A stretch of DNA of 32,449 nucleotides from a virus (IMGVR_UViG_3300033067_000567:1-32449); one strand, 5' to 3'; positions 10,648 through 32,449 are shown, counted from the first letter of the stretch. Notes: generated by a model from the letters alone, not told the origin. Numbers and translations are program-made.

Positions 10648-10651
10648 TCAC

Positions 10652-14018: not shown

Positions 14019-14019
14019 A

Positions 14020-14463: not shown

Positions 14464-14475
14464 TGTGTTACCTCG

Positions 14476-14916: not shown

Positions 14917-14918
14917 GT

Positions 14919-16371: not shown

Positions 16372-16379
16372 ATTCGCCT

Positions 16380-16835
16380 CTACTTGCAAAACAGGTTGAG
16401 TGTGGTGGTTACAGGGTTGCTACCGAACTGCGTCAGCGAAGCGCGGACATAGTTGGCAGGCGGCACGAAGAACGTATAGAAATCGTTCTGCGCGGTCGTC
16501 ACGTTGCTAACCACGTTCGCAGCCGTCACCGCCGACGCGCTGTAGTTCACCCAGTTGCTGTTATCGTTGCTGCCTTGAAGCGTCAAGGTAATGTTGCTGG
16601 TTGATCCGCCCTGCGTCATCACGTAGTGGAGGCCACACTGGGCATACTGACCAATCGGCACGCTGCCGCTGGTTGCGCTCGCGGTCGTGACTTTGTTGAA
16701 CCACAGCGTTGCATTGCCAGACGCGGGGTTAGAGACGGTCACAGTGCCGGGAATCGTCAGCGCAGCGTTGACCGGGGCGAAGATCGCAAAGGCCAACGAC
16801 ACGGCGGCGATGATTGCATAAACTTTCTTGCTCAT
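16380..16835 (-). CDS. beta-sandwich (decoration/cement-like) protein with N-terminal signal peptide
   Basis: Directly after the capsid gene, SD GAGGTG. LTLQGSNDNSNW...NYVRA pattern. N-terminus MSKK, a hydrophobic core, then VNA-A. Confidence 0.65.
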   Translation of the reverse strand: MSKKVYAIIAAVSLAFAIFAPVNAALTIPGTVTVSNPASGNATLWFNKVTTASATSGSVPIGQYAQCGLHYVMTQGGSTSNITLTLQGSNDNSNWVNYSASAVTAANVVSNVTTAQNDFYTFFVPPANYVRASLTQFGSNPVTTTLNLFCK

Positions 16836-16868
16836 TTGAATGTCACCTCTGATGGTCTAGTGTTCGGC

Positions 16869-18815
16869 TTAGTGGGCCACGCCGGTGATGATTTCGCACG
16901 AAGCGGCACGCATCAGCGAGAAGTCAGCGCGGAGAATGGCGCGAATCAACGTCTGATCGTTGGCGAAGGCGCTGCCAGCGATGTTGCTGGACGCGAGTTC
17001 GAGCGATGAGCGGTTACCCAACACCCACTCATCACCACGCACAACGATGATGCTGGACGCGCTGCCGCTGGATGTGATGGAGGTCGTCTGATACACCGGC
17101 AAACCGAGGCGGGCGCTCATGCGGTCAGTCAAACCGTTGCCGAACATGTTCGGGTTGGTTTGCTGATTGGCTGAGGCAACATAGTCGCCAGAAGCGCCGA
17201 CGCGGGTCAGCAATGCTTTCAACGCCACTTCGGGGCGCATCACCACAGACACGCCATTCAGCGGCACTTTGGCAGCGGCCATACGGCCAAGCGCCTTGAG
17301 AATCGCGTCGTAGATGTTGTCAGCGCCGACAGCGGTCGAAGTGACACCGGCCTCGTTCAACAAGCCGGTCGGCTCGGTCGAAGTGCCAGCGCCAGCAAAT
17401 GCGGCGAGGTCATACGCCTCACCCATCTTGCGGGTGATGCCGTTGCGGATGAATGTCTCAATCGCGGGTGTGCTGTCTACCAAAAGCTCGTTGCTCACAG
17501 TGGCAATCGCGGTCAGCTTGCGGGCGGTGAGTGTCTTCTTGGCGGTCGTCGCGTCACCGGCAGATGTGGCCGAGTTGTTCTCAGCAGACCAACCAGCGCT
17601 AAAGGTGTTGATGGAGGGCATGTCGCAGACTGGCCCCGGCATTGGGAAGTTCATGCCGATTTTGCTGGCAACCACTTCCTGATACAGCGCGTCGATGACC
17701 ATGCTGGTCTGAATGCGCGGCACGAAATGCTCGCCCACGGCGCTACCGCTGGTGGTCGCCATTGCCTTGAACGCTTTCACCGCATCCGCGCTACCTTGGA
17801 ACTCAAGATCGCCCTCGCCGCTGGCAAGATTGAACTCAATGCTGCCCTTTGGCACAGCTTGCAAAGCCTTGACAGCCCACAGGAAGGGCATTGGCTCTGA
17901 CTTCTTGGTGATGACGGTCGGCGCGGTATACGCGGGGCGGCGGGCGGCAATCGACTTGACGGCCTTGCTCGCGGTCTCTTTGATAAGGGCGTGAACCTCA
18001 TCCTCGGTGAATGTCTTCACTGCGGGGACTTCGGGCTTGGCTGGCTCAGTGGGGGTTTCAACCACATCAGGCACGGCCTCTTGCGTGGCCTCGGCCACAA
18101 TTTGCTCAACGTTAATGTCGCTCATTTTTTGAATAACCTCAATGGATTTCGCCGCCGCTGGCTGTGCGCCTTCGGTCGGCTCTGCTGGAAACTCGCTCAT
18201 CATTTCGTCAAGCATGGCTTTGATGCTGGTAATCCGGTCACGATTGCGCCTCGCAAATGTGGCCCCAGCTTTCGCCGCGTCTGCCTCGCCCGATAGTTCG
18301 TCGAGTTGTTCACTGGTTAATGCTTTGGCCGCAGCCAGCGCGATTGCGCGCGGGTTCACCGCTGCGTCGGCTGTGTCTGCGTCCATCAGACTCATTGCAA
18401 AAATCGGCCAGTTCGTGACACGTCCGGGTTTCCCCACGATGCCCGCTGGCCGCACTAGATGGCTGCTGCTATCGCTACTGGCCCGCGCTCGGCCTTGTGC
18501 AGCGTCCGCGTGTATCTTCTGTGCAATGGATTTGGCCGCGTCCAGCGCCACGTCAAACACATGGCCGGTGATGCCGTTTAGGGTAGAGATGCCCTTGTAG
18601 ATGGCTGTGCCAATGCGCCCGACGGACTTGGACGCAATCTCCGCAAAGCCGTGATAGTGGTAGACGGGGATCGTATCGCCTAGCGACAGGTCAATATTGG
18701 TTGACGCATCAAACACTTGGCCCTGTCGGTCAGTGCCGAAGGGCAGGCCGACGATCTGTAATTTCAGGTCGCCGGTTGCTTTGATGGCTGATGTAACGGT
18801 GATTGCGTCAAACAT
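16869..18815 (-). CDS. fused prohead protease-scaffold-major capsid protein (HK97 fold)
   Basis: N-terminal protease-like region (PFGTDRQGQVF, YHYHG, ASSDS, WPIFAMSL), an acidic Pro-rich linker, and a C-terminal capsid region (WSAEN, RKLTAIATVSNELLVDS, GAGTSTEPTGLL, LGLPVYQT, FANDQTLIRAILRADF). Start moved to ATG 18815 because the listed start falls inside a terminator hairpin. Confidence 0.9.
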   Translation of the reverse strand: MFDAITVTSAIKATGDLKLQIVGLPFGTDRQGQVFDASTNIDLSLGDTIPVYHYHGFAEIASKSVGRIGTAIYKGISTLNGITGHVFDVALDAAKSIAQKIHADAAQGRARASSDSSSHLVRPAGIVGKPGRVTNWPIFAMSLMDADTADAAVNPRAIALAAAKALTSEQLDELSGEADAAKAGATFARRNRDRITSIKAMLDEMMSEFPAEPTEGAQPAAAKSIEVIQKMSDINVEQIVAEATQEAVPDVVETPTEPAKPEVPAVKTFTEDEVHALIKETASKAVKSIAARRPAYTAPTVITKKSEPMPFLWAVKALQAVPKGSIEFNLASGEGDLEFQGSADAVKAFKAMATTSGSAVGEHFVPRIQTSMVIDALYQEVVASKIGMNFPMPGPVCDMPSINTFSAGWSAENNSATSAGDATTAKKTLTARKLTAIATVSNELLVDSTPAIETFIRNGITRKMGEAYDLAAFAGAGTSTEPTGLLNEAGVTSTAVGADNIYDAILKALGRMAAAKVPLNGVSVVMRPEVALKALLTRVGASGDYVASANQQTNPNMFGNGLTDRMSARLGLPVYQTTSITSSGSASSIIVVRGDEWVLGNRSSLELASSNIAGSAFANDQTLIRAILRADFSLMRAASCEIITGVAH

Positions 18816-18904
18816 GGAAAACAAAAAGCGCGGTGTCTCATTTCGAGACACCGCGCAGGATTTGCTCTGGTGCGTTTTGGTTATTTAGTTGGTCGCTATT
18901 TTAC
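18816..18904 (-). promoter_or_regulatory. late leader cassette A: -10 box, conserved 20-mer, terminator hairpin
   Basis: TAAAAT (18898-18903), CCAGAGCAAATCCTGCGCGG (18851-18870), a perfect 12-bp stem GCGCGGTGTCTC/GAGACACCGCGC (18828-18856), then TTTTTGTTTTCC and the ATG. Confidence 0.8.
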
Positions 18905-18905
18905 A

Positions 18906-19178
18906 TCAATCGTGCTGCTCGTATTTGTAGTCGGTTACGAACGCTTCTGGTATGAACTGGTCTGCATCCATAATGCGAAGCGAATCTGGCGGCAATTCCT
19001 CAGAAATGGCGACGCGCAGCCCAAACCGCTTCTCTAACGCCTCAATCACACTAGTGCTGCAATCGTGCATAGCAATACATTTCCCCGCCAATGGAATGCC
19101 ATTGTCCTTGAATGCGTTAACCAATTCCTCGACAAGGGTCTCTATCTGTGCGGGTTCTAGCCGTTCTATGATTGCCAT
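18906..19178 (-). CDS. hypothetical protein (90 aa), probably with its own leaderless promoter
   Basis: The ATG at 19178 lies 6 nt after TATAAC and has no SD. Confidence 0.65.
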   Translation of the reverse strand: MAIIERLEPAQIETLVEELVNAFKDNGIPLAGKCIAMHDCSTSVIEALEKRFGLRVAISEELPPDSLRIMDADQFIPEAFVTDYKYEQHD

Positions 19179-19184
19179 GCGCAA

Positions 19185-19214
19185 GTTATAGCACTATCTC
19201 ACTATCAATGTCTA
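19185..19214 (-). promoter_or_regulatory. promoter with extended -10
   Basis: TAGACA-N18-TATAAC with TGc directly before the -10 box. Three GATAG copies lie in and around the spacer. Confidence 0.55.
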
Positions 19215-19706
19215 TCAACCCTTCCCGCTCGTAATCTTCTCCGCCACGCGCAACGTCACGCGCTTGCCTACGCGGTCGGGTTTCGTCGCGGCCAACGCAC
19301 GCTCAAGGAAGTTATTCGGGCGCGTGCCGGGATGGTTCACGCGCTTGGCAAACACCACGCCACCGCCACTACTCACGAAGCGTAATACCTTTGCCTTGCG
19401 CGGCACAATGACGTGCCGCTTGCTGCCAAACAACACAGACTTAACGACCACCTCTGGCCGCGACTTGTTGCCCATTGTGACCTCTAGGTGAACGTTCTTC
19501 GTGCCAGCCTGCCGCGTGTTGATGCGGACGGTAGAGGCAAGCACGCCGGTTTTCTTCGGCGCTTCCTCTGCGATCTTGGCCCGCAGCACACGGCCATAGT
19601 CGCGCAAATCCTCGGTGGCGTAGTTAATGATCTGCTGCTGCGCTTTGGTAATGCGGCCCTTGATGCGCTCCAACTCATCAACGGTTATGGTAACTAACTG
19701 TGCCAT
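19215..19706 (-). CDS. HK97 gp10-like neck/tail-component protein
   Basis: Motifs APKKTGVLASTV and VNHPGTRPNNFLERAL. Confidence 0.85.
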   Translation of the reverse strand: MAQLVTITVDELERIKGRITKAQQQIINYATEDLRDYGRVLRAKIAEEAPKKTGVLASTVRINTRQAGTKNVHLEVTMGNKSRPEVVVKSVLFGSKRHVIVPRKAKVLRFVSSGGGVVFAKRVNHPGTRPNNFLERALAATKPDRVGKRVTLRVAEKITSGKG

Positions 19707-22462
19707 TAGTCCTCCAACATCACCCGCACATCAGCGGCCTTATAAAACGCCTCGCCAATCTTCAACACTGGCGCGTCAGTCGTAGCTTTGATGCCACCAT
19801 GAACATTGAACCGTTCCACCTTGTCAATCGTGCCGAGTTCAACGCCTACGCTATCGTAAGCCACACGGCCCACAAAATCAATCACCGGCATCAGCGCTTT
19901 ACCCGCTGCGGTCGCCGCGCTGTTGGCCGACGATACCGCGTCCGCCACTTGGTCGGCGGGTGTGCTTTGATTCAGGCGCTTGATCTGTTTGTCGATGGTG
20001 GTCGCCGCCTTATCTAGTTTCTCGCGTGCGGCCTGTGCCTCTGGCGTATCAACACCCTCCAAGCGCTTGAGTGCGTCGTCAATCGTGGCGCGTTGCTCAA
20101 CAGCTTTGTTAAGACGCTCTTTGCGCTTCTTTTCTTTCTCTGCGGCTTTCTGTTCATCCGTCTTTTTTGGTTTCTTAGCCTTCTTGCCCTTCTTCCCTTT
20201 CTTGCCCGCTGCGTTCTTCATGGCGCGGTCGATGATGGCCTGCCGTTTCGCGTCGTCTAATTCGGCCTTAGATTTGCGGTCGATGGGCGCACCATCCACG
20301 CTCGAAAACTTGCCGCCCTGATCGCGCTTGGTGTTGCCAGCCTTTGCCGCCGGGTCTTCGCTGTCCGTCTCGCCCTCGGCATCGCCTTCCATCGCGTCTT
20401 CTTCATCGGCCTCACGCTCTGCAATCGCCGCCGCGTCCAGTGCTGCCAATACCTCGCGCTCTACCGCCTCGGCCTCGGCTTCCATCTCCGCATCTTCCAT
20501 GTCCAGCGGTTCATCTTCGCCGTCAATGTCGGGCGGCTTGAGTAGGCCAGCGACATAGGACGGTAACGCGCAGGGCAACAGAAGCTTGACCATCGCATAC
20601 GCTTGGCCCTCGCTAATCAGCCCGCCGTTGTAGTTGTCGATGATGGTCTGCAATGAGGTTAGCGTCTCCGGTGTAATTCCCATATCTTCATCGTCCTCGG
20701 TTTCTGTTTCTGGCTGCTCCTGTTCGACTGGCTCTGGCGCGGGCTTTCGCAACAATACCTCTAGCGTTGCGTCGTCAACTTCTGGCATAGACATTCGTAT
20801 CATTGTCTGCGCCTGTTCTAGGTCTAGGTCGCCTTTGCGATACTGGCCCGCAATGACACGCGCTTGGATCATGCCGCTGCTGTTGGGCTTGGCCGCTTCG
20901 GGCTGCGCTGGCTCAGTCGGCACGTCCTGTATATCCTCTTTGATGTTGATTGTTTCGTCCGTGTCCTTAGCAATGAAATCCTCAACATCACTATCCGAAA
21001 TGGTTGGCGCGGTAAGGCGCAACATTACACGCGCCTGCCTGTCTGTTAGATTGCCTTGTGCGTATGACTCAGCCACGCCGCGCAAGTTCACCAACTGCGT
21101 AGAGGTCAGCGGCGATGCGGTCGCAGGGTTGACAATCTCGCCATCGGCGTTTGTGGTCTGTTCGGGCTGCGCTGGCTGGTCAGGTTGCCCGCCGCCCACA
21201 ATCAGCGTCACGTCATCGGCGGATGGGTTGCCCTCAATCTTCATTAGGCCGCGCTTCTCGCGTGCCTCGTTGATGGTGATAATGCCGCCCTGCAACTCAG
21301 CGACGGCGGTCTGCGCTTCGACGCTGTTGATTTCGGCGCGTTTCACTTCGTCCTCTTGCAGCGCCTCAACATCATCGAAACAAAACGCGAGGTAGTAGCC
21401 GTCCTCTTTGCTGCCCTCGTAGTCTGACCACAGCAAGTAATTGTTGAGCGATTCGGCCACCATCTGCGCCAACGGCACAATCTTGCCGCGCCAGAATTGC
21501 TTCATCTGCGCGTCAGCATTGGCAAGTTTGGAAGCATCCGAGTAGTCGCCCGCCACAGCAGGCGGCACGCCATACGCGGCCATGATTTCGTTCATCAGGC
21601 GCATTGAGCGTTGCTCGCGCTGCTGCTCTACGGCGGTCAGTTGGCCGCTTTCACGGTTCATCCCTTGCGGCAAAAAGCGATCATCGGCCATTGCGTCTGG
21701 ATCACGGTTCTTGGCGTTCCACTGAGCCATAAACTGCCGCGCATCCTCGTCGATCATATTGAAGTCCACGCCGATCACGCCGCCGCCCTTGCCGCCGTTG
21801 CGGTCGATGGCCTCCTGCGCCATGTCTGCCAGCGCATAGCGGTTGATTGCGGCCACGGCGCGGCTTGTGGGCGATGTGCAAATGAACGGATCGCGCAGCG
21901 ATGGGTAATAGATGCGGATCACATCCTCAATCGCATAGGTGTCAGTGCCGAGGTATTTATAGGCGGTCGGATAGCCGCGTGGGTCGCGTAGCATATCGAC
22001 CTGCAACGCGGGCAGGATGTGCAACTCTTGCGGCTCGCCGCCGCTTTCGGGGCGTAGCTTGTAGATGAGCCATTGGCCGAATACGTTTAGCTGCTCCATG
22101 CCCGCACGTTTGAAGCTGGCCTCATCCATATAAAACGGGTTGATGGTCTGCAACAACTCAAGGATAGGATGGCTATCAATGCGGGTCGGCTCATCCTCTT
22201 TCTTCGCCGCTTTCTTGTAGAGCTTAAGCGGTGTCAACGCCACAGCGTCAGCAATGGCACTCACGCAGTTGCCCGCCCACACGTTGTATGTGGCGGCATC
22301 GCTCCACCCATACGGCTCATCGCTGTAAAGCCGAAGCGCATTGCGGCCAGCGCCCAAGCCCGTGATCCAAGACGATGTGGTAGCCCACGATTGCAGGCGC
22401 GGCGGCTGGTTGGCTCCGGCTTTCGCGGCAAATAGTCCCTTGATGTTGTTAATTATTCCCAT
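19706..22462 (-). CDS. portal protein with ~500-aa C-terminal extension
   Basis: Follows TerL. HK97-type portal motifs HPILELLQTINP, EIMAAYGVPPAVAG and GIITINEAREKRGL lie within the first ~420 aa. Confidence 0.92.
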   Translation of the reverse strand: MGIINNIKGLFAAKAGANQPPRLQSWATTSSWITGLGAGRNALRLYSDEPYGWSDAATYNVWAGNCVSAIADAVALTPLKLYKKAAKKEDEPTRIDSHPILELLQTINPFYMDEASFKRAGMEQLNVFGQWLIYKLRPESGGEPQELHILPALQVDMLRDPRGYPTAYKYLGTDTYAIEDVIRIYYPSLRDPFICTSPTSRAVAAINRYALADMAQEAIDRNGGKGGGVIGVDFNMIDEDARQFMAQWNAKNRDPDAMADDRFLPQGMNRESGQLTAVEQQREQRSMRLMNEIMAAYGVPPAVAGDYSDASKLANADAQMKQFWRGKIVPLAQMVAESLNNYLLWSDYEGSKEDGYYLAFCFDDVEALQEDEVKRAEINSVEAQTAVAELQGGIITINEAREKRGLMKIEGNPSADDVTLIVGGGQPDQPAQPEQTTNADGEIVNPATASPLTSTQLVNLRGVAESYAQGNLTDRQARVMLRLTAPTISDSDVEDFIAKDTDETINIKEDIQDVPTEPAQPEAAKPNSSGMIQARVIAGQYRKGDLDLEQAQTMIRMSMPEVDDATLEVLLRKPAPEPVEQEQPETETEDDEDMGITPETLTSLQTIIDNYNGGLISEGQAYAMVKLLLPCALPSYVAGLLKPPDIDGEDEPLDMEDAEMEAEAEAVEREVLAALDAAAIAEREADEEDAMEGDAEGETDSEDPAAKAGNTKRDQGGKFSSVDGAPIDRKSKAELDDAKRQAIIDRAMKNAAGKKGKKGKKAKKPKKTDEQKAAEKEKKRKERLNKAVEQRATIDDALKRLEGVDTPEAQAAREKLDKAATTIDKQIKRLNQSTPADQVADAVSSANSAATAAGKALMPVIDFVGRVAYDSVGVELGTIDKVERFNVHGGIKATTDAPVLKIGEAFYKAADVRVMLED

Positions 22463-22466
22463 GTTG

Positions 22467-23678
22467 TTATCCGTATGCGAATCGCTGTCGAACGTTGCTC
22501 CATGCCAGCGCCAAACTCATTACCGTATCGTCGTGCATCCCGTCCGGCGCGTTGTATTTCACGCCGCCCGATGGCGCACGCTGTGACTCATACGCCTCTA
22601 GTTCACCAATCAATATTGGGTCGTTCGGTATCTTGATTGCGCCACGCTCAAACGATGCGGCCAACTCCTCAATGATGTCGGCCTTCGTGGTCGCGGTCGT
22701 CGTGAAATCTCTAACCTTCACACCCATGCGCCGCAGCATGTCGTTGTTGGGTTTACCCATTGCGTTTTCTTCGGCCACGACCACACGCACGCCGAAGCGC
22801 TCACAGGTGGCCTTGATGCGCTCACGCTGTAGGCTGTAATCAATGCCGTTGAATCGGTCGGTGTAAACCAGTGCCTTATCAGTGCTGTCGATGATGGACA
22901 ACACCGTATAGTCATTCGACAACGCCCAATCTAAACCGGCAACATAGGTGTGATTCTCTAGGGGCTTGGTGTGTCGCTCTGCGGTGGCACAGGCGCGAAC
23001 GTTGCGAAACACGCCGCCGCCATCGTCTACAAACTCGGCCAACCATTCTTGCTTAAACGTGCGCTCGGTGACACGCTCGCGGGCCATCTCAAACGCCTTG
23101 CGTATGTTTGGGTTAGGGTTGGCTGAGGTCGGCGCGGTAAATGCTGCCGTGTGCCTGCCGTCGCTCATGCCGCGCACCCACTCACGCCAGAACCAGTTAC
23201 GGCCCTTCGGCGTGCTAATCATTAGCAGTTTGCCGTTGCGGTCGGCCAGTGTCGGCAGAATCACATCGCTATAGGTTTCTTCTGAGACTTGCGCGGCCTC
23301 GTCAATGATGACCACATCGAACGACTCACCGCGTAGCCCCACGTCATTGTCAGCGCTATACACACCCAGCCAACCGCCGCTAGGGAATGTAATAATGCGG
23401 TCGGACTTGTGAACGTCTACGCCCTTCGCCTGCGCTACCTGCGACTCGGCAAAGCGCCACACGGGGCGGCTGTTCTTATACGTAGGCACTACCCACGCCA
23501 CCGCCGCGCCATAGTCTGCACAGGTAAGAGAGTAAACCCCACTCATAAATGTTTTGCCCCAGCGTCTACCATTGGCAATGACCTTAATCTGCGCCGGATG
23601 CGTTAGGATTTTGGTCTGATCGCTTCGCAATGGTGGCAACTGCGGTTTCGTGATTAAAGACTTGCTGCCTTGTTTCAA
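22467..23678 (-). CDS. terL: terminase large subunit
   Basis: Walker A GRRWGKT, Walker B VIIDEAA, ISTPKG, nuclease motifs GLDWA and HDDTVMSLALA. Likely start is the TTG at 23678, after SD GGAGGG inside terS. Confidence 0.95.
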   Translation of the reverse strand: MKQGSKSLITKPQLPPLRSDQTKILTHPAQIKVIANGRRWGKTFMSGVYSLTCADYGAAVAWVVPTYKNSRPVWRFAESQVAQAKGVDVHKSDRIITFPSGGWLGVYSADNDVGLRGESFDVVIIDEAAQVSEETYSDVILPTLADRNGKLLMISTPKGRNWFWREWVRGMSDGRHTAAFTAPTSANPNPNIRKAFEMARERVTERTFKQEWLAEFVDDGGGVFRNVRACATAERHTKPLENHTYVAGLDWALSNDYTVLSIIDSTDKALVYTDRFNGIDYSLQRERIKATCERFGVRVVVAEENAMGKPNNDMLRRMGVKVRDFTTTATTKADIIEELAASFERGAIKIPNDPILIGELEAYESQRAPSGGVKYNAPDGMHDDTVMSLALAWSNVRQRFAYG

Positions 23679-24018
23679 TTGGCCCTCCGTCCGGCCCGCT
23701 CCACTCGCTGCGCTCCACATACCCGCGATTCTTGCCGATGGTCTTGAGCGTGAAGCACACGGCCCAGCCCTCTTTGGCCGTGACCGCCGCTTTCAATGCC
23801 GTCTCTGCCACGTCTAGCAATTCGCCGCGTGAGTTATCAACCACTTCGCGCACTCTCGCAGATTTCTCCATGCGCCGATAGATCGCAGACGGAGCGCAGC
23901 CGAGGTGCTTTGCGGCAAGGTAAACCATGCCGTTGAACGAGGTGAGCGCCTTACACATTTCGTCGTCCGTGTAGCGCGTCGTCCTCTTTTTATTTGTTGC
24001 GTTTGTTGCGTCGGCCAT
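23584..24018 (-). CDS. terS: terminase small subunit (HTH)
   Basis: HTH segment VYLAAKHLGCAPSAIYRRM and LKTIGKNRGYVERSEWSGPDGGPI. Directly upstream of and overlapping terL. Confidence 0.8.
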   Translation of the reverse strand: MADATNATNKKRTTRYTDDEMCKALTSFNGMVYLAAKHLGCAPSAIYRRMEKSARVREVVDNSRGELLDVAETALKAAVTAKEGWAVCFTLKTIGKNRGYVERSEWSGPDGGPIETRQQVFNHETAVATIAKRSDQNPNASGAD

Positions 24019-24021
24019 GTT

Positions 24022-25299
24022 CTACGCTCCCTCGGTGATGCGCTGCGGTTGTTTGCCGGTGGCGGTAGACCAACGTTCTAGGGCCACGCTGACGTATTCA
24101 GGGCTTATCTCCATTGCGCGGCATTTGCGGTTTAGTTGCTCGCAGGCGATTAGGGTTGTGCCGCTGCCACTGAACCCGTCAAAAACAACTGAGTCTTTCA
24201 GTGTTGAAAATTCAATGGGCTTTTTAATAACCTCAATGGGTTTTTCGGTTGGGTGTTCAGTGGTGTGGCGTGGCATTGTGATCCCCCACCAATTTAGCGC
24301 ATGTGTTCCGTCTGGATAATTGCAAACATGCTTGCCACGCACTGCATAGGCCACAAGTTCTGTCGCCCATGTCCAATGGCGCTTAGATAATGACGGTGCT
24401 GGATTTGGCTTGCACCAAACACAGTAGCTGTAGAACTTCGCCCATCCTTTCATCCAATCCCATATTTGCTGAATAAGAAAATGTGATGTGTAAATATATA
24501 CAACCGACGATTCGGAAAGTATTGCCTCTAAAGTAAGAAACATATTTTTGGGGTCAAAGTTCTTATCCCATTCCGCCTCAGCCAGCGTCTTTGACGACCG
24601 ATAATGGGTCGGCGCATCCTTTGCAAATACACTTGTATCCGATGCCATGTTGTAAGGCGGGTCTGTCACAACCGCGTCCGCCTTCTCCCCCGCCATCAGC
24701 CTCGCCACATCCTCCGCGCTCGTACTGTCGCCGCACATCAGCCGATGGTTGCCCAACTGCCACACGTCGCCGCGCTTCACCTGCCATTTCTGTTGCAACT
24801 CTGCGGCCTTATCAATCTGCGGCTCTACATCCTCAACCGCTGCCCCGCCGCCAGCGCCGTAGTCCAGTCCGTTGTCCTGCGCCAACTCCGCCAACATCGC
24901 TTGCAATCCCGCCTCGCCCGTGTTCACGTCACGCAACAGCGCGTCTAGTTGCTGTTTGTCATACGCTGCCATTGCCGCGATTGGGTCAAGGGATGCAAGG
25001 GCCAGCTTTTCTTCCGCCTCGCTCAACTCAACCTCAACGTAAGGCACTGGCGTTTCATCGCCCAGCTTCAACGCCTCGGCAATACGAGCGTGGCCGTCTA
25101 CCACGTTGCCGGTGGTCTTGTTCACAATGACGTTTTGAATCCACCCAATCTCACGCAATGAACCGGTGAGCGCTTCTTGCTGCGCCTTCGGGTGTATACG
25201 TGCATTGGCGGGATTTGCCATGAACTGCGACGCGGGCATTGTGCCGTTGCCGACGATGCGGTTGCGCCATTCCTGCGGCACTGCTTTCTTCTTCGCCAT
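24022..25299 (-). CDS. ParB-like N-terminal domain fused to N6-adenine/N4-cytosine DNA methyltransferase
   Basis: ParB-like NPANARIHP...VVDGHARI, then HRLMCGDS, motif IV DPPY, HPTEKP and motif I FSGSGTT (beta-class order). Confidence 0.92.
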   Translation of the reverse strand: MAKKKAVPQEWRNRIVGNGTMPASQFMANPANARIHPKAQQEALTGSLREIGWIQNVIVNKTTGNVVDGHARIAEALKLGDETPVPYVEVELSEAEEKLALASLDPIAAMAAYDKQQLDALLRDVNTGEAGLQAMLAELAQDNGLDYGAGGGAAVEDVEPQIDKAAELQQKWQVKRGDVWQLGNHRLMCGDSTSAEDVARLMAGEKADAVVTDPPYNMASDTSVFAKDAPTHYRSSKTLAEAEWDKNFDPKNMFLTLEAILSESSVVYIYTSHFLIQQIWDWMKGWAKFYSYCVWCKPNPAPSLSKRHWTWATELVAYAVRGKHVCNYPDGTHALNWWGITMPRHTTEHPTEKPIEVIKKPIEFSTLKDSVVFDGFSGSGTTLIACEQLNRKCRAMEISPEYVSVALERWSTATGKQPQRITEGA

Positions 25300-25613
25300 T
25301 ACGCCACCACGACCACATCCAGCGCCGGTTTAGCCGGTGCGTATGTGGCATTTGTAAATGTCACGATGAGCCTGAACTTACCCACTGACGCGCTTAAGAA
25401 CTTCGGTAGGGTGATGGTGTTCGTGGCAACGGTCGGTGAGCCGGTTAGTACTGTGCCAGACACATCATTGGCACTGTTGCCCATGTCCAGCGCCACAACG
25501 CTGATGCTCGTTGGACTTCCGCCGTAGTTGGTGGTGTCGATGGCCCAATACACACCCTCACCTGCGCGGGCGTATTTGGGTGATTCGACAACGAATAATT
25601 CCTGTTGCTGCAT
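25299..25613 (-). CDS. Ig-like small virion protein, candidate fibre adaptor
   Basis: 104 aa with an all-beta pattern. Last gene of the fibre-like cassette. Confidence 0.55.
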   Translation of the reverse strand: MQQQELFVVESPKYARAGEGVYWAIDTTNYGGSPTSISVVALDMGNSANDVSGTVLTGSPTVATNTITLPKFLSASVGKFRLIVTFTNATYAPAKPALDVVVVA

Positions 25614-25615
25614 AG

Positions 25616-27214
25616 TTAATCAGTAAGGGTTAGGTCAACATCACGCAACGGTAAGCGAGTGAGTGTGGATCGCTCTGGCAATGTCACGCCCATGTCACGC
25701 GCGGAAACGTTGATTAGCACATTGCGCGGCGGGAGGGTGGCGGAGAGGTCGCGGGCCGCGAGAGTCAGCACAACATAGGTGTAAACCGCGCCACTCAAGA
25801 CCGAACTGGACAGCGTAGCCGTGCCAAGCGTCTGCGTCAGCGTGCCAACGATGGCAACCGATGCCGCGCTACTGCTTACCACTTCGCCCAGCGTCACCGA
25901 TACCGCGCCCGTAACAGGCGCAACCGCCGAACTACTCACAGTCGCGCTGCCAAGCGTCTGCGATAGGCTGAGGTCAATCAGCGCCGACGCACTAGACGAT
26001 AGGCTGGCTGCGTCCAGCGTGGCCGTTGTGCTGGCAGTGTTCGCTACGGCGACATTGCTCGAAAGTGCCACCGCGTCCAGCGTTGATGACACTGTGCCGG
26101 TCACTAAAACGGTGGCCGTGCTGCTCAACGTGGCCGCGCCAAGCGTCTGATTGAGCGTTAAGCCCGACTCCTGTGTGGCGGTGCTGTTTAGCGTCACCGC
26201 GCCGAGTGTTTGGCCGAGGCTCGCGGCGATGGCAACCGATGCGCTAGACGATGCCGTAAGCGTGCCGAGTGTGGCGGTGAGTGTTGCTGATACCTCTACA
26301 GCCGCGCCACTGGATAGCGCGGCATTGCCAAGCGTGCTATCTACCGCCCCACTCACCCCCGCCGCTGCATTGCTGCTCAGTGTGGCCGCATCTAGGGTTG
26401 CATTAACGCTGGCCGTATTCGCGCTACCGATGGTGGCCGATAGGGTCGCTTCGCCAAGTGTTTGGGCGAGGCTGGCTGTATTGGATACTGTCGCCGCGCT
26501 CGAAAGCGTGGCCGCGTCTAGCGTGACGGTTAATGTGCCATTGCTGGCAACTGCCGCGCTGCTTGATAGGGTTACGCTGTCGAGGGTGGCCGTGAGGCTT
26601 GCGCTATTGCTGACCGTGCCAGTGCTAGAAAGCGTCGCAGCATCTAGCGTTTGGGTGAGTGTTGCGCCAACTGAGACGATGGCCGTGCTGGATGCGGTCA
26701 GCGCATCTAGTGCCTGCGTCAGTGCGGCATTGTTCGCAACGGTGGCACTGGACGACAGCGCAACCACGCCCAACGCGACATTGACCGCCCCACTGTTGGA
26801 TACCGTTGCGGCACTTGTGAGTGTGGCCGTCCCTAGCGTAGCTGATAGGCTGGCCCCAACTGATACCGTCGCACTACTGGACGATGTAACCGCGCCGAGC
26901 GTTTGATTGAGGGTTGCCCCAATGCCAACGGTAGCCGATGCGCTCACCGTGGCCGCGTCAAGCGTCTGTGCCAATGCACCAGCAACATCCGCAACGGCAC
27001 TAGACGACACTGTGGCGGCCCCCAGCGTTGCAGTGAGCGTGGCACTATTACTGACCGTGACACTGCTAGAACTGGTCGCAGCGCCAAGGGTGGCCGTGAC
27101 ACTCGCGGCCACATCAACCGTTGCGCCACTCGACAGTGTGACACTCCCCAGCGTCGCCGTTAGGGACGCGGTGAGGTCAGATGATGCCGGTAACGGCTGA
27201 TAAAACCAAGACAT
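25616..27214 (-). CDS. Ala/Ser/Thr/Val-rich repeat protein, candidate fibre scaffold
   Basis: 532 aa with about 20 repeats of ~22 aa (xLxxTL[G/D]xATLSSxATV) and C-terminal 9-aa [T/L]LPxR-type repeats. Confidence 0.75.
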   Translation of the reverse strand: MSWFYQPLPASSDLTASLTATLGSVTLSSGATVDVAASVTATLGAATSSSSVTVSNSATLTATLGAATVSSSAVADVAGALAQTLDAATVSASATVGIGATLNQTLGAVTSSSSATVSVGASLSATLGTATLTSAATVSNSGAVNVALGVVALSSSATVANNAALTQALDALTASSTAIVSVGATLTQTLDAATLSSTGTVSNSASLTATLDSVTLSSSAAVASNGTLTVTLDAATLSSAATVSNTASLAQTLGEATLSATIGSANTASVNATLDAATLSSNAAAGVSGAVDSTLGNAALSSGAAVEVSATLTATLGTLTASSSASVAIAASLGQTLGAVTLNSTATQESGLTLNQTLGAATLSSTATVLVTGTVSSTLDAVALSSNVAVANTASTTATLDAASLSSSASALIDLSLSQTLGSATVSSSAVAPVTGAVSVTLGEVVSSSAASVAIVGTLTQTLGTATLSSSVLSGAVYTYVVLTLAARDLSATLPPRNVLINVSARDMGVTLPERSTLTRLPLRDVDLTLTD

Positions 27215-27225
27215 TCAGGTTGCGC

Positions 27226-27624
27226 TTATGCGTTTGCGTCGGTCAGGGTGAAGGTTGAAACGGTGATGGTTTGTCCCGATGCAATCGACGTGTTGTCGAT
27301 AATCATGTCTGTACCAGATGTGCCGACCGTGCCTTGAATATGGCAGGTTGACCCGCCCGAATCCTTGATGCGGAAGTGAGCTGCCGTACCAGTGCCGGAC
27401 GCGGCCACTGACCACGTGCCCGACTTGGCCTTGCTGCCTGACGATGCCGCTGCCATCCAGTCAGACGGAAGGGCAAGGGTTGCCAACAATGACCCGCTAT
27501 CGGCAGTTGCACAATCCGCCGGGGCTGACCCAGTGCGGATATAGAGGTTTGCGCTCGTGCCGACTGTGGTTTCGATTGCATCCAATCGGGCATTGCGTGC
27601 TGAAACTGATAACTGAATTGCCAT
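27226..27624 (-). CDS. conserved phage virion structural (fibre subunit-like) protein
   Basis: ARNARLDAI...LYIRTGSAPA...LLATL...GTAAHFRI...QGTVG...IASGQTITVSTFT, a pattern recognised from phage structural proteins. SD AGGAG. Confidence 0.75.
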   Translation of the reverse strand: MAIQLSVSARNARLDAIETTVGTSANLYIRTGSAPADCATADSGSLLATLALPSDWMAAASSGSKAKSGTWSVAASGTGTAAHFRIKDSGGSTCHIQGTVGTSGTDMIIDNTSIASGQTITVSTFTLTDANA

Positions 27625-27643
27625 TTGTAAAAACTCCTGTGTA

Positions 27644-27991
27644 TCAAACTGCTCTAACGCTGGCGATGATGGTGCGATCCGTGCCAGCGAGTTTTTTAAC
27701 TGTTACATCCCATCCGTGCATCACCATCAGTGCAGGCAGGACGAAATACCGCGCTTGCGCTCCGGTCAGAATCGCCTCATAGATCACGCCCTGCGTGCCA
27801 CCGCTGATGACTTTCTCATAGACGCGAATCTGGTATTGATCACCCGCCGCCATGTTTTGCAGGCTGAACCATGCCTGTATGGTGTAGTCGGTCGTCTGCG
27901 GTGAACCGCTGGAATAGGTTGTCGCAGTCGGGACGCTGATTTCGGTCGTGCCGACTGAGGCGTTGAGGGTGAATAGTTCTGATGGGGCCAT
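27644..27991 (-). CDS. hypothetical beta-rich virion protein
   Basis: 115 aa, tightly packed within the cassette. Confidence 0.65.
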   Translation of the reverse strand: MAPSELFTLNASVGTTEISVPTATTYSSGSPQTTDYTIQAWFSLQNMAAGDQYQIRVYEKVISGGTQGVIYEAILTGAQARYFVLPALMVMHGWDVTVKKLAGTDRTIIASVRAV

Positions 27992-27993
27992 AG

Positions 27994-28839
27994 TTACCTG
28001 CCTGCGTAGACGATGCCAGAATAGTTGCTGTTGAGTGAACCGCTGGATTGCGCCCGCATGTAAAGCCCTACCCCGCTTGGCGCGTCACGTTCGCAGCCAT
28101 CGGCAGGCGCGAGCGCGTTGTTGAGACGGTTGGCGGTATCGCAGCCAAATGGTTGATCCGCAATGATGATGTCGTAGTTTGATCCATCACCGATAGCAAA
28201 CTCAACGTAATACAGGCGATCAGATGTGGACGATGTGTTAAACCCAAACCCCTGTTGCCAATACCAATAGGCCGCGCTGGTTGTGCCAATGCTTGTCCAT
28301 GATCCATCGTTGGTCGTGCCGGGGGTGATGGTTGTGCCGCAACTTGAGCCAGAAGTCACACCAAACGCAACAACCTCAGTAATAATTCGATGCGCCTCTG
28401 GATTCTTGGGCAACCCAAACAGCGTAATCATCACGTTACAGGTTGACACGGTGGCATTGTTGACGCTGGCCCGAATCGCAACCGTCGCGCCTGATTTGAT
28501 GCGCAATGGGAAGTAGTAATAAATCCCGCCCTTGTTCGGCGTGATTGCCATACAGCCAATGAGGTCGGGGATTTTGACCGTATAACTTGTGCCGCCCGCG
28601 TCATCCACACCAATGTCTACCAGCGTATCGCGTGCGTTGCTGCTGCTGCTGTTGGCGTTAATCTGAATCAGTATGCCGCACGCCTCATTCGCAATCGCGC
28701 TAAACGCCTGCGCCCAACTGCCCTTGCTATTATTCCCCGGCGTACACTGTGTGCCAACCGCCGTGGTGCTTGGGCGCGTTGACCCCTGATTGGTGATACG
28801 CCAGCCAAAGTCTCGGCCATCGCTAAATGTATTAAGCAT
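27994..28839 (-). CDS. hypothetical two-domain beta-sandwich protein (candidate fibre tip)
   Basis: 281 aa with an internal duplication: GTQCTPGNNSKGSW...DIGV...Y and GTTITPGTTNDGSW...EFAIG...Y. Confidence 0.7.
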   Translation of the reverse strand: MLNTFSDGRDFGWRITNQGSTRPSTTAVGTQCTPGNNSKGSWAQAFSAIANEACGILIQINANSSSSNARDTLVDIGVDDAGGTSYTVKIPDLIGCMAITPNKGGIYYYFPLRIKSGATVAIRASVNNATVSTCNVMITLFGLPKNPEAHRIITEVVAFGVTSGSSCGTTITPGTTNDGSWTSIGTTSAAYWYWQQGFGFNTSSTSDRLYYVEFAIGDGSNYDIIIADQPFGCDTANRLNNALAPADGCERDAPSGVGLYMRAQSSGSLNSNYSGIVYAGR

Positions 28840-28993
28840 AGAGCCACCACACGGTTACACCTACAATGGCGGCACAAAACGCGCACACGGCAACAATCAA
28901 CACGGCCCCGCCGATGAGGTCGAATTTATTAAATGGCATTGCCGGTTTAGTTGTAGGAGACTCGCGGCGATCTGTGCTGGTTATTTGTGCCAT
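28832..28993 (-). CDS. small single-TM protein (53 aa), not in ORF track
   Basis: MAQITSTDRRESPTTKPAMPFNKFDLIGGAVLIVAVCAFCAAIVGVTVWWLYA. Its stop overlaps the next start (ATGCTTAA). Confidence 0.6.
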   Translation of the reverse strand: MAQITSTDRRESPTTKPAMPFNKFDLIGGAVLIVAVCAFCAAIVGVTVWWLYA

Positions 28994-29003
28994 TGTCTAC
29001 GCC

Positions 29004-29079
29004 GGAAAACGAAAAGCGGCTCATGCCTATACAGGCACAAGCCGCGCAGGATTTGCTCTGGATTGTGTCGCAATTTTAC
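29004..29079 (-). promoter_or_regulatory. late leader cassette B: -10 box, conserved 20-mer, terminator hairpin
   Basis: TAAAAT (29073-29078), CCAGAGCAAATCCTGCGCGG (29042-29061), a 13-bp stem GCGGCTTGTGCCT/AGGCATGAGCCGC with two G-U pairs, then TTTTCGTTTTCC. Confidence 0.8.
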
Positions 29080-29264
29080 CGCTGAACTGCGGTTAGATTG
29101 ATGCTTTCGATAACTCGTTCGGCCCATACGCGGTTGTCTTTGATGTTGACTTGTTCAAATCGAACAACGCCCGATTGGGTCAATTTCATGGCCTCTCTGA
29201 GTAATTCCACCCACGCTTTCTCTAGTGGAGTAAGCATTTCGGGCGTTTTGGTTTGTTGTGTCAT
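29076..29264 (-). CDS. small protein (62 aa), loosely DUF2292/YezD-like
   Basis: Helix followed by short beta strands (SGVVRFEQVNIKDNRVWAERVIESI). Its stop codon forms part of the -10 box of cassette B. Family resemblance judged by eye only. Confidence 0.6.
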   Translation of the reverse strand: MTQQTKTPEMLTPLEKAWVELLREAMKLTQSGVVRFEQVNIKDNRVWAERVIESINLTAVQR

Positions 29265-29267
29265 AGG

Positions 29268-29363
29268 TTAATTTGCCATTACGAACAGACAGCCGAAAAA
29301 GCTGGCCCACGCCAGCAGCAAAACAACCACAACGATTTCAACGTTCTTTGATGCGCGTTCCAT
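29268..29363 (-). CDS. small single-TM peptide (31 aa)
   Basis: SD AAGGGGG, then MERASKNVEIVVVVLLLAWASFFGCLFVMAN. Confidence 0.5.
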   Translation of the reverse strand: MERASKNVEIVVVVLLLAWASFFGCLFVMAN

Positions 29364-29380
29364 GTAGCCCCCTTGTAGAT

Positions 29381-29458
29381 TCATAGCCATCGTTGCACCA
29401 CCAGCGCCACGAGTAGCGCCACGTCCAGCATAGCGATGCGGCGAATCCATCTAGCCAT
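29381..29458 (-). CDS. small hydrophobic peptide (25 aa), not in ORF track
   Basis: MARWIRRIAMLDVALLVALVVQRWL. Its start overlaps the upstream stop (ATGGCTAG). Confidence 0.4.
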   Translation of the reverse strand: MARWIRRIAMLDVALLVALVVQRWL

Positions 29459-29591
29459 TGCCCCGCTGCGCCTCCACTAGTTTCGCCTTCGCCTCAATCA
29501 ATCGCGCAGCGCCCAGCGCGATAAACCCGAAACAGCCGCAGAGTAAAAACGCGGCAGCGGCGCAACTCAATCCGATTTGAATAATGTTCAT
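29451..29591 (-). CDS. small single-TM protein (46 aa), not in ORF track
   Basis: MNIIQIGLSCAAAAFLLCGCFGFIALGAARLIEAKAKLVEAQRGNG. ATGA overlap with the upstream stop. Confidence 0.55.
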   Translation of the reverse strand: MNIIQIGLSCAAAAFLLCGCFGFIALGAARLIEAKAKLVEAQRGNG

Positions 29592-30376
29592 GGTGCAGGT
29601 GTTTCCGTCTCCTCTGGCACAGGTGTCGCCAACGGGCTTTGCAGCGGCCCATCTGTGACCGTCACCAGTGCAGGTGGCGTAACTGTCGCCTCCTCCGTCG
29701 CGCTCGGCTCAATCGTCGGCGTGTTCGTGTCGCTCGGCTGCGGTGTGCTGGTGTGAATCGGCGCAACTGTCGGCCACGGTGTTGGATGCTCGGTAATCGT
29801 TGGCGCGTCGGTTGGATACGGTGTCGGCGTGGCGGTAAATATCGCGGCCCATGTCGATTCGTCCGCCGTGGCCGCGAGTGTTTCAACCACCAGCACAACA
29901 GGCGTAGCGCTCGGTGTGCCACTCGGCCACGCGCTAGGCGATGCAATTGGAGTTGCGACGGCTGGCGTAACAGTGCCACCAGCCGCCGCGTATATGCCCG
30001 CGCTAACCGGCGCGGTGTCAAGAGGAACTATGTGCTGCGGCGATGGAATAGACGTTGGGTAAACGGTCTCGTTGTATGTGGACGACGCGCCTAACACCTC
30101 AGCGGTGGGCGCTTGTTCGTGTAGCGGGATGGCATAGCCTGATACGGCGTTCATCTGCTCGCGGCTCACTGGGATCGTTACATCTACAGCGAGCGTGGTC
30201 TGTATCTTCTGCTCTGCGATGCGGGTGGCGGTTGCCTGCAACACCTCAACCGTGTGGGCCTCAGCAACGTTGGCGCTTACCTGCTCACCGATCATGTGCG
30301 TGGTTATCCCTGTTGCGCTACCAACAGCTAAGGCAAAAATGCCGCTTGCCAGCGTGGACAAGAGAGAGAGTTTCAC
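29588..30376 (-). CDS. exported or membrane-anchored Pro/Thr-rich protein
   Basis: N-terminal hydrophobic segment, TATPTP-type low-complexity region, C-terminal SPLATP. GTGA overlap with the upstream gene. Confidence 0.75.
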   Translation of the reverse strand: MKLSLLSTLASGIFALAVGSATGITTHMIGEQVSANVAEAHTVEVLQATATRIAEQKIQTTLAVDVTIPVSREQMNAVSGYAIPLHEQAPTAEVLGASSTYNETVYPTSIPSPQHIVPLDTAPVSAGIYAAAGGTVTPAVATPIASPSAWPSGTPSATPVVLVVETLAATADESTWAAIFTATPTPYPTDAPTITEHPTPWPTVAPIHTSTPQPSDTNTPTIEPSATEEATVTPPALVTVTDGPLQSPLATPVPEETETPAP

Positions 30377-30696
30377 CGCTTGCCTCGCTTCGGCTTTTCG
30401 GTTGTGTCGTCAAGGGGATTAGGCTCATGCTCGATGTGGTCAATCTTTTGCTTTTGCAATGCGTCCGCTTCTGGTCGTGCATAGATACCACGCTCAAAAT
30501 TTAGCTCCCCTTTCAGGTCTGCAATCTCGCCCAACATGACTTCGATTTTGTCGTCTTTGTTCTTGTTCTCTTGCCTCAGTGTTTTGTTCTCCGCTTTGAG
30601 TTCGGCTATCTGCGCGTCCTTCGTGCGATTGACAACAACGAACGCGACCGCGCCAGAGCCTATTGCGGCAACAACACTGATGACCTCGATGACCAT
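30373..30696 (-). CDS. N-terminal TM plus coiled-coil protein (lysis-module associated)
   Basis: TM segment at about residues 2-22, then heptads IAELKAENKTLRQEN...IADLKGEL. Directly after the holin. Confidence 0.7.
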   Translation of the reverse strand: MVIEVISVVAAIGSGAVAFVVVNRTKDAQIAELKAENKTLRQENKNKDDKIEVMLGEIADLKGELNFERGIYARPEADALQKQKIDHIEHEPNPLDDTTEKPKRGKR

Positions 30697-30713
30697 TTAA
30701 CGACAAACACCCT

Positions 30714-31049
30714 TTACGAATCTCCGCGAATCGAATCAGCTTTTAACGCTCTAAACTCCTGCGTCTTTTGCATCCCATGCCCAATCTGCGACGCAAGGAT
30801 GTTGAGGATAGGCAATAGCGCTTTCACATACGGATCGACCGCATCATTGATAAACGGGTTGCGGGCAGTGATGGATTGCACATACACCGCAACCAGCGCC
30901 AGCACAGCCGACACGCCGAACACGCTGACCATGCGGCCATTCGGTGTGAGGCTTTTGAACCAGTCGAATTGTTCCAGCACGCGAGACGCAACCACAGACG
31001 CGCCGCCGCTGATGATGTAGATGAGTAGCGATGTCAAATCTGAAACCAT
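30714..31049 (-). CDS. putative holin
   Basis: 111 aa from the ATG at 31049 (SD GGAGGT), with 2-3 hydrophobic helices, WFKSL and a charged C-terminus. Confidence 0.7.
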   Translation of the reverse strand: MVSDLTSLLIYIISGGASVVASRVLEQFDWFKSLTPNGRMVSVFGVSAVLALVAVYVQSITARNPFINDAVDPYVKALLPILNILASQIGHGMQKTQEFRALKADSIRGDS

Positions 31050-31058
31050 ATACCTCCC

Positions 31059-31134
31059 GGAAAACAAACAAGCGACGACACCCGTTAGGATGCCGTCGCG
31101 GTGACAGCGAAATATTGAATTGGCTTGATTATAC
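31059..31134 (-). promoter_or_regulatory. late leader cassette C: -10 box and terminator hairpin
   Basis: TATAAT (31128-31133), a 12-bp stem GCGACGGCATCC/GGGTGTCGTCGC with two G-U pairs (31072-31099), TTGTTTGTTTTCC, then the holin SD. Confidence 0.75.
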
Positions 31135-31137
31135 GGC

Positions 31138-31347
31138 TTACCCTTGCGCCGCCAACACTGCCCCATCAAATGCAATCGTGCTGCGCACCGATGAGCCTGA
31201 GCGCTTGAGTGTAATTTGCCACGCCGTGCGCAACAGTTCGGCGCGATCCATGCCGCGCAATACCTGCAACAGTTCAGTCACGGCGCGAAGTTCTTCGTCA
31301 TTGCTCACGATGACGCGCTGGGGGTAATCGGTTTGTGTCTGTGTCAT
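31138..31347 (-). CDS. hypothetical protein (69 aa)
   Basis: ATGA overlap with the upstream gene. Ends 4 nt before the -10 box of cassette C. Confidence 0.65.
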   Translation of the reverse strand: MTQTQTDYPQRVIVSNDEELRAVTELLQVLRGMDRAELLRTAWQITLKRSGSSVRSTIAFDGAVLAAQG

Positions 31348-31625
31348 AGAGTGATTTCATAGGCGGATACGCTCGCCATCCGCCCGTTCATGGTTGGTAT
31401 CGGTTTGTTCCCCCCGAAACGCGCCTTCCCAATCTCAATCAATTTGCGAATCTCATCACGCGCTCTGTCGATATTTACCCTGCGCTTTGCCGCGTATTCG
31501 CGCACCGTCACCAGATGCGCCGCGCCCTCTACTGCGTCCTGATTGACGCTTGCCAACAGCGCTTGCAGTTCGCTTGCTGTTAGCCCCGGCAGTATCTCCG
31601 GTTCCGTCTGTTTTTGGCGTGCCAT
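31344..31625 (-). CDS. small winged-HTH-like protein
   Basis: SD GAGG, ATG at 31625. VTVREYAAKRRVNIDRARDEIRKLIEIG followed by a beta-hairpin. Confidence 0.6.
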   Translation of the reverse strand: MARQKQTEPEILPGLTASELQALLASVNQDAVEGAAHLVTVREYAAKRRVNIDRARDEIRKLIEIGKARFGGNKPIPTMNGRMASVSAYEITL

Positions 31626-32449
31626 GTTCAATCCTCACTATGTGCCTATGGTCTCTAATGACTTCATACTGAACGAGTTCATGCGCCGTCGTTCCATCGT
31701 CATAGATGCGTATCAACCAACAGCCAATGTCCGGCGGCTGATGCGGTCGGATGCGGTGTCCGTGGCTGGTTGATAGCTGCCAACATCCAGACGTTAGCGC
31801 GGTGGTATTCGTGCGGGTGTAATGCCCAAACGCGATGCGGTGTGTATGCCCTCGCAGAACGTAGCGCGGAATCGGTAGCCCGTTAAACATCGCCTCTACT
31901 GCCTGATCCGCCGCCTCTGCGCTGGCTGCGTTGTTTCTATTGCGATCTAACCCGCTGCCCCGCCCATGATGCGCAATGTTGAACTGCACCCCGCCAATTT
32001 CAGCCAGTGCCACCGGCCACACATGCAGCGCGGTATCGGGCGGGCGCACAACGTTCTTGCCTTGCGCACTAAACGTTTTGGCGATGATGTTTTCTATGCG
32101 CCCCTGCAAGCCCACATGTGCTTCCGTGCCACTGATGAACATCAGCCAGTTACACCATGCCGCGAGCGGGTCAATTGCCTCCACTCCTATGTCCGCGTGA
32201 TCCTCCTGCGATGCGCTGACTAGCTGAACCGTGCCGTGATGGTTGCCCTCGCTCAAATCACCGTTGAAAAGCCCAAACACTTTCACGCCCGAAAGCGCCT
32301 CACGTTTTACCCGCTGCCCTAAATCCTGCCAGCGCTCCCATAGCCAGCCCTGTGCCCTGTTCTGCCGAATCTCTAAGCCGTCGGCATTAACCCATTTCGG
32401 CGGGAATAGCGCAGTGCTGCCCCCACAATGCAAATCTCCGATGTCTACG
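31456..32449 (-). CDS. calcineurin-like metallophosphoesterase, 5'-truncated
   Basis: The frame is open to the window edge (VDIGDLHCGG). Motifs DxH, NGDLSEG, GTEAH, AHHG and RGHTH. Confidence 0.85.
   Translation of the reverse strand, partial: VDIGDLHCGGSTALFPPKWVNADGLEIRQNRAQGWLWERWQDLGQRVKREALSGVKVFGLFNGDLSEGNHHGTVQLVSASQEDHADIGVEAIDPLAAWCNWLMFISGTEAHVGLQGRIENIIAKTFSAQGKNVVRPPDTALHVWPVALAEIGGVQFNIAHHGRGSGLDRNRNNAASAEAADQAVEAMFNGLPIPRYVLRGHTHRIAFGHYTRTNTTALTSGCWQLSTSHGHRIRPHQPPDIGCWLIRIYDDGTTAHELVQYEVIRDHRHIVRIEHGTPKTDGTGDTAGANSKRTASAVGKRQSGRSRGRGASGDGARIRGKAQGKYRQSA

Follow-up and report, generated by a model that had tools for sequence, protein, structure and literature searches.

A probable terminator/antiterminator leader switch ahead of two late gene blocks of a tailed phage, with a 62-residue protein as candidate ligand

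How does a phage turn on its late genes together when no familiar late regulator is recognisable in its sequence? The late switches known from temperate phages are polymerase-modifying antiterminators, DNA-binding activators and sigma factors. The question is raised by IMGVR_UViG_3300033067_000567, a virus record that is linear, 32,449 bases long and was analysed at full length (the window). Its minus strand carries the late half of a tailed phage, with genes for a methylase, terminase, portal, capsid, two tail tubes and a tape measure. The original prediction, made from the sequence alone, had placed a promoter, a short leader and a terminator ahead of three late blocks (sites 1, 2 and 3, in the direction of transcription) and had proposed that an antiterminator or an RNA switch acts there. 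According to our analysis, the leaders of sites 2 and 3 very likely form a conserved terminator/antiterminator switch. On balance we think it probable that these two-state RNA switches are held open by a small phage protein of 62 amino acids (aa).

The three minus-strand layouts were borne out when the sequence was read again. The -10-like hexamers are TATAAT at site 1 (31133-31128) and TAAAAT at site 2 (29078-29073, retained in the relatives L017 and L020) and at site 3 (18903-18898, retained in L017, L018 and L020). They are followed after 28, 27 and 41 nucleotides (nt) by stems of 12, 13 and 13 base pairs (bp), at 31099-31072, 29045-29016 and 18856-18828, respectively, and the leaders are 60-75 nt long in total. 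Together with their U-tracts, these hairpins were terminator-like both in the terminator scan and on folding (31059-31099, 29004-29045 and 18816-18856), and the next ATG lies 9, 10 and 0 nt further on. Site 2 precedes a block of virion-protein, methylase, terminase and portal genes; at site 3 the U-tract abuts the capsid ATG and there is no Shine-Dalgarno (SD) sequence. The minus strand of the window contains GTTTTCC exactly three times, once per cassette, and the plus strand lacks it; two G-U pairs each could be read in the stems of sites 1 and 2, as predicted. The statement that no clear -35 box was present agrees with sites 2 and 3, which lack a consensus -35, and is wrong for site 1, where a putative promoter, TTGGCG-16-TATAAT (31128-31155), has 10 of 12 consensus matches. 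What the sites share is a layout and not one motif, since the conserved hairpin described below is found at sites 2 and 3 only. The three cassette stems were the longest among 29 terminator-like sites of 12450-32449; the 12 such sites of 1-13000 had stems of at most 11 bp. As the total was no higher than chance (29 versus 22.3 +/- 5.7 in shuffles), the cassettes are distinguished by stem length, tail and position. Folding z-scores of the short leaders were -2.6, -2.9 and -6.3 for sites 1, 2 and 3.

Sites 2 and 3 also contain an identical 20-mer, which the original prediction had not mentioned and which is the longest exact direct repeat of the window (2 matches versus 0.01 expected). The relatives L017-L020 retain both leaders with changed stems, and their alignment revealed a second fold, CC-AGA-3bp-AAnnn-3bp-GC-GG: an outer stem ending in CC/GG, an internal loop AGA/GC, a 3-bp inner stem and an AAnnn loop, including a bulged A and an A-G mismatch. 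The predicted antiterminator hairpins, delimited by the repeat, covariation and prefix folding, lie on the minus strand at 29036-29067 (site 2, conserved core 29061-29042) and at 18848-18873 (site 3, conserved core 18870-18851). They measure 26-32 nt and have about 9-10 nt in common with the 5' arm of the terminator. Because the 3' half of the hairpin is the terminator 5' arm, the two folds are mutually exclusive. In prefix folding, a competing hairpin appeared first at all three sites (-8.8, -8.8 and -9.2 kcal/mol for sites 1, 2 and 3), and the terminator formed afterwards (-22, -26 and -30 kcal/mol).

Evidence for the second fold also came from unrelated phages, in which the hairpin recurs ahead of terminators. 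A viral scan that prescribed the invariant bases and the ends of the terminator but left the inner stem free retrieved 31 stretches, 25 of them distinct. All three inner-stem pairs were Watson-Crick in 13 of the 14 matches with a strong terminator versus none of the 11 without one; when the six rows of the seed family were removed, the proportions were 7/8 versus 0/11 (p=1.6e-4). A scan with the commonest 20-mer gave 26 stretches, and at 17 of these sites the motif ran, by reading, into a terminator-like hairpin that begins inside it. We aligned 22 leaders, namely these 17 and five others, and omitted nine of the 26 sites (eight without terminator, one truncated). In this alignment 78% of cells were paired, and the covariation was 0.343 versus 0.132 when shuffled (0/500) and at most 0.12 when slid, a figure that is inflated for the inner stem because the search pattern fixed it. 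The outer pairs were part of neither search pattern, and they too were kept: 9:32 paired in 19/22 leaders with five pair types and 10:31 in 18/22 with three. RNAalifold reached the same fold unaided. The promoter-like part of the layout recurred as well, with a -10-like hexamer upstream of 13 of 20 leaders (2.1 expected), and the leader of L185 follows a near-perfect sigma-70 promoter, TTGACA-17-TATACT, which should need no activator.

The motif appears to belong to phages. A scan with a 16-mer returned 15 stretches, 14 of which were chance matches without terminator. An RNA model of sites 2 and 3 (R1) recovered the seed family only among 95 sources, the next match having E=3e-4; it found nothing in five Chloroflexota metagenome-assembled genomes, and a search of Rfam gave no match in the window at E<=1. 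Chloroflexota are the likely host, since a related terminase was found at 25 genome loci and the titles of 15 of these name Chloroflexota or one of its subgroups. In 401 Chloroflexota genomes there were seven core matches in six genomes, against three for the reversed control, and none had an overlapping terminator with U-tract; judged by their sequence, the matches in host genomes are chance matches only. In a metagenome scan covering 8 of 64 parts, in which the matches were presumed mostly cellular, no link of stem and terminator was seen among the 114 distinct matches listed (2/24 versus 5/90). We found no cultured phage with the leader.

Which molecule might hold the hairpin open? Our candidate antiterminator, chosen for its conservation, gene position and structure model, is the 62-aa protein encoded at 29076-29264 on the minus strand, the stop codon of which overlaps the -10 box of site 2. 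The open reading frame (ORF) is kept in L017, L018 and L020 with third-position bias, and the strain differences listed, from RNA-library contigs of one study, were synonymous in 13 of 13 cases; the ORF is under purifying selection. It stands together with the cassette at different gene-order positions in the window, L017 and L020. L018 has an intact homologue at 1417-1640, directly behind which all that is left of site 2 is its 3' arm and U-tract; promoter and switch seem to have been deleted there naturally. As L018 keeps the ORF and an intact site 3, this would fit an action in trans. The protein model has a helix (13-28) and a beta-hairpin (strands 36-42 and 45-50) at a pLDDT of 76.8. By eye, nine of 11 unrelated contigs have a small helix-plus-strand ORF next to the cassette; there was no obvious companion in L179, and L188 is without upstream DNA. 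The small ORFs of L139, L177, L185, L192 and L195 were mutual top non-self phmmer matches among 9380 ORFs (E 4e-21 to 0.1, some weak). In L177, L192 and L195, the small gene, apparently with two or more domains, lies between two switch copies, which suggests autoactivation. We lean towards the 62-aa protein as the ligand of the switch, with some reserve.

Several observations weigh against this picture. Equally good competing hairpins arose in 271/1000 leader shuffles for site 2 and in 240/1000 for site 3, and 16 of 65 control terminators had a comparable one. The hairpins thus do not stand out by folding energy, and the case rests on conservation and covariation. Of the 22 leaders in the alignment, however, 17 came from a search whose pattern prescribes the inner stem; nine of 26 sites were omitted, and several of the leaders are relatives. 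The RNA model of sites 2 and 3 did not match site 1. The 62-aa protein had no match in Pfam, PHROG or NCBIfam, none at E<=0.001 in Foldseek searches of the PDB and BFVD, and no sequence link to the companions in unrelated phages; its family reached an hhalign probability of only 9-15% against DUF2292 (PF10055), and this for one template only. Finally, CheckV rates the phage genome as incomplete (32% and 43%), and therefore another regulator could lie beyond the available sequence. Searches for homologues of the protein returned only near-identical proteins and one 68-aa relative, and the Atlas search gave unnamed clusters with scores of at most 0.83. Three long matches were rejected as repeat artefacts.

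Some of these points would be expected if the switch is real and answers to another ligand, be it a host protein, a metabolite, a translating ribosome or a phage gene outside the available sequence, the 62-aa ORF only travelling along. The incomplete genome, the companions that cannot be aligned to the 62-aa protein and the contigs L179 and L188 speak for it. We nevertheless regard it as unlikely: the ORF accompanies the cassette through rearrangements and persists where its own cassette was lost, three phages have a small gene between two switch copies, matches in host genomes were chance matches only and Rfam offered no known element in the window.

Established regulators were sought by profile in five phage records, of which only G004 is complete. 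NusG (PF02357) was absent from all five and present in 10 of 14 control genomes; CAT (PF03123) was likewise found in none of the five and in 4 of 14 controls. Q (PF06530) gave 0/5, and no Q family appeared in an hmmscan of the ORFs of the window, L101 and G004. ArpU (TIGR01637) also gave 0/5, with no control past the cut-off, and no such PHROG was seen among the scanned ORFs.

The closest parallel is the RAT element bound by BglG, SacY and LicT, a 29-33 nt hairpin with two conserved internal loops that has 6-10 nt in common with the terminator 5' arm (PMC5393181, in excerpt). The hairpins of sites 2 and 3 are similar in both respects, with 26-32 nt and 9-10 nt in common (compared with the same excerpt). 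Their loops, however, are of other sequence, with the bulged A and the A-G mismatch and no Rfam match at E<=1; no CAT domain was found in the five records, a search that covered phage-encoded proteins; phage late genes are gated here and sugar operons by RAT; and the candidate ligand is a stand-alone protein of 62 aa without regulatory domains. In our analysis the system would work like RAT/CAT antitermination while failing the sequence and protein tests for RAT. In conjugative plasmids, the conAn2 element was predicted to be about 260-600 nt long, processive, cis-acting and able to act on foreign terminators (PMC8191782, in excerpt). It resembles the present case as an RNA element with a small adjacent gene that controls termination in a mobile element (same excerpt), whereas the phage element comprises about 30 nt in a 60-75 nt leader, overlaps its own terminator and is, to judge by L018, apparently served in trans.

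The comparison drawn by the original prediction was with lambda Q and HK022 put. In lambdoid phages, the late promoter PR' is followed at once by the terminator tR', and a short RNA is made until a phage factor permits read-through (PMC7547250, in excerpt). A terminator-like hairpin soon after a promoter-like site, ahead of late genes, is the layout that we observed, and to this extent the idea of a promoter-proximal terminator that must be overridden was supported; of the two options offered, the RNA switch was backed by the association of stem and terminator, the covariation and the RNAalifold fold. The analogy itself turned out less apt. Q acts by modifying polymerase and does so at one late promoter (same excerpt), whereas here dispersed copies, one per operon, each have a hairpin that overlaps the terminator, and no PF06530 gene was found. 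Moreover, three of the seven leaders without a -10-like hexamer are second copies just downstream of the small gene, in three other phages, with no -10-like box within 60 nt. Because of these copies, a switch that acts on RNA wherever it is transcribed fits better than Q-type loading at a promoter.

A related possibility is that the hairpin is a loading site like boxA/boxB of lambda nut, from which a factor-modified polymerase reads through processively. An A-rich 9-mer, recognised by eye from these very leaders and hence partly circular, might be its boxA-like part. It lies near the predicted start of leader 1 (31113-31121, minus strand) and in leader 3 (18882-18890, minus strand), before the hairpin in each case, and recurs in 6/20 leaders of the sites-2/3 family and in 9/12 leaders of family B, a group of phages described below (0.04 expected each). 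The downstream blocks are also long, 10-18 kb. On the other hand, a loading site need not overlap the terminator, as the hairpin does in all aligned cases; each block has its own copy; no other stem of at least 12 bp was found in the window on which processivity could act; and a gene for NusG or Q was not found. We consider such loading rather improbable. Our best reading is a RAT-like RNA switch and not lambda Q-type loading; the five records yielded no gene for Q, NusG, CAT or ArpU.

Very doubtful, finally, is a reading in which the hairpins serve to end upstream transcripts, to stabilise 5' ends or to enhance translation and late expression depends on a DNA-binding activator that recognises the 20-mer. 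The missing consensus -35 at sites 2 and 3, the U-tract that abuts the ATG of site 3 without SD, and contigs from RNA libraries of one study that bridge sites 2 and 3 (with flat coverage, ends that cannot be placed and possibly DNA in the libraries) would suit it. Against it, the 20-mer follows the -10 box; as an inverted repeat it is interrupted and asymmetric (3 vs 2), and its pairs covary through base changes; its pairing goes together with the presence of a terminator; expression would still be blocked by any terminator placed between promoter and gene; and no ArpU gene was found in a search in which no control passed the cut-off.

For the preferred reading, a switch at sites 2 and 3 that is controlled by the 62-aa protein, the following course may be envisaged. 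Host sigma-70 RNA polymerase would start about 7 nt after the -10 box, and the weak hairpin, at about -9 kcal/mol, would fold first. Left to itself, the leader would then refold into the stronger terminator (-22 to -30 kcal/mol) at the expense of this hairpin, and an RNA of 60-75 nt would be released. Once accumulated, the 62-aa protein would bind the invariant AGA/GC internal loop and the AA apical loop and keep the terminator from forming, so that the packaging and head/tail blocks would switch on together. Site 1 would probably obey the same logic with another hairpin, and perhaps through a protein of 69 aa, which would make the whole a cascade.

Site 1 indeed has a predicted competing hairpin of its own (31092-31108, minus strand; 6 bp, 5-nt loop, -8.8 kcal/mol), 8 nt of which are in common with the terminator 5' arm and for which 27 of 1000 shuffles were as good. 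We assign it tentatively. Site 1 had no relative outside the same phage and hence no homologue for covariation. Gene order links it to the phages of family B (L034, L065, L069, L073 and L077), in which a phosphoesterase-like gene, a small ORF, a cassette and a homologous membrane protein follow each other, site 1 corresponding to their first cassette. These phages have up to three dispersed cassettes with their own 4-bp hairpin that overlaps the terminator (12 sites); because its stem is invariant, it gives no covariation evidence. The ORF in the equivalent position just upstream of site 1 encodes 69 aa (31138-31347, minus strand), has no family match and is a candidate second ligand. Site 1 is probably a parallel switch with the same logic and a different hairpin. 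The first gene behind it, preceded by a strong SD, encodes a membrane protein of 111 aa (30714-31049, minus strand) that may be holin-like. It had no match in Pfam or PHROG and no endolysin was recognised among the window proteins with these databases; the name "lysis block" is thus an attribution only. In L028 and L031, a GAAA-loop hairpin was seen before the terminator upstream of the holin-like gene. A fourth terminator-like hairpin, of 12 bp, lies just upstream of the window end in the same phage (L101, 11860-11887), before the phosphoesterase-like gene; it is without the conserved motif.

The resemblance of the 62-aa protein to DUF2292 is a lead only. Both are small proteins with a helix and a beta-hairpin, but the PF10055 model did not match the 62-aa protein. 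Among 23 profiles, the window family and one true DUF2292 member (L325) were reciprocal best matches, with 38% identity over 29 columns. For the companion in L178, of which no cultured phage carrier was found, the nearest named Atlas cluster was 30% DUF2292 (score 0.85), again a lead only. PF10055 was found in none of 81 Chloroflexota genomes and none of five others. The literature yielded no antiterminator function for DUF2292; YezD and OscA are names used for such proteins. The DUF2292 gene of L325, in a bacterial genome (G429), is followed by an A-rich box resembling the one in the phage leaders and by a 4-bp hairpin with purines on either side; no terminator was evident there.

As to the phage itself, a second record (G001), 99.9% identical across the overlap, adds about 11.9 kb of upstream sequence with replication, repressor-like and methylase genes and a gene that we take, from its motifs, to be metallophosphoesterase-like. 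No tRNA was found in the 10 regions examined. The head/tail block begins with a 648-aa major capsid protein with a C-terminal capsid domain, assigned by family matches (16869-18815, minus strand). SD-like sequences are absent at several late gene starts, for example 18815 (capsid), 28839, 25613 and 22462. Two tail-tube paralogues with about 70% DNA identity stand in tandem at 14020-14916, as in relatives. At 24022-25299, ahead of the terminase genes, a DNA methylase is fused to a ParB-like domain, and at 25616-27214 a 532-aa protein rich in Ala, Ser and Thr consists of 21-residue (63-nt) repeats and has no family match. On the plus strand (417-735), a near-consensus promoter (11/12) precedes an ORF of 71 aa, which is convergent with the end of the tail block. 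The large terminase subunit of L017 (4119-6320) has 733 aa with a long insertion, the ends of which are presumably intein-like. Other leader types were also met: in L021 (7430-7570), the capsid gene is preceded by a different, longer leader with a long terminator stem, and in L103 (8954), L106 (15948) and L107 (17859, minus strand) a hairpin with U-tract stands right before an ATG, between opposite-strand genes and without the leader motif.

We found no paper on such a system; subscription papers were mostly outside the search, and supplementary motif tables could hold the element. A broader proposal, which still falls somewhat short of being probable, is that of a widespread, unpublished class of late control: mini-proteins resembling DUF2292 would each bind an antiterminator hairpin specific to their phage. 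Here, two orthogonal pairs would act in series, site 1 with the 69-aa protein and sites 2 and 3 with the 62-aa protein, and elsewhere a gene flanked by two switches would autoactivate. A RAT-like switch run by a protein of 60 residues would explain how late genes are controlled in phages, the complete genome G004 among them, in which no regulator is recognisable. It would also suggest what DUF2292-like proteins do, under the broader proposal possibly as far as chromosomal operons such as that of L325, and would make these phages a source of very small, possibly orthogonal RNA-protein switches.

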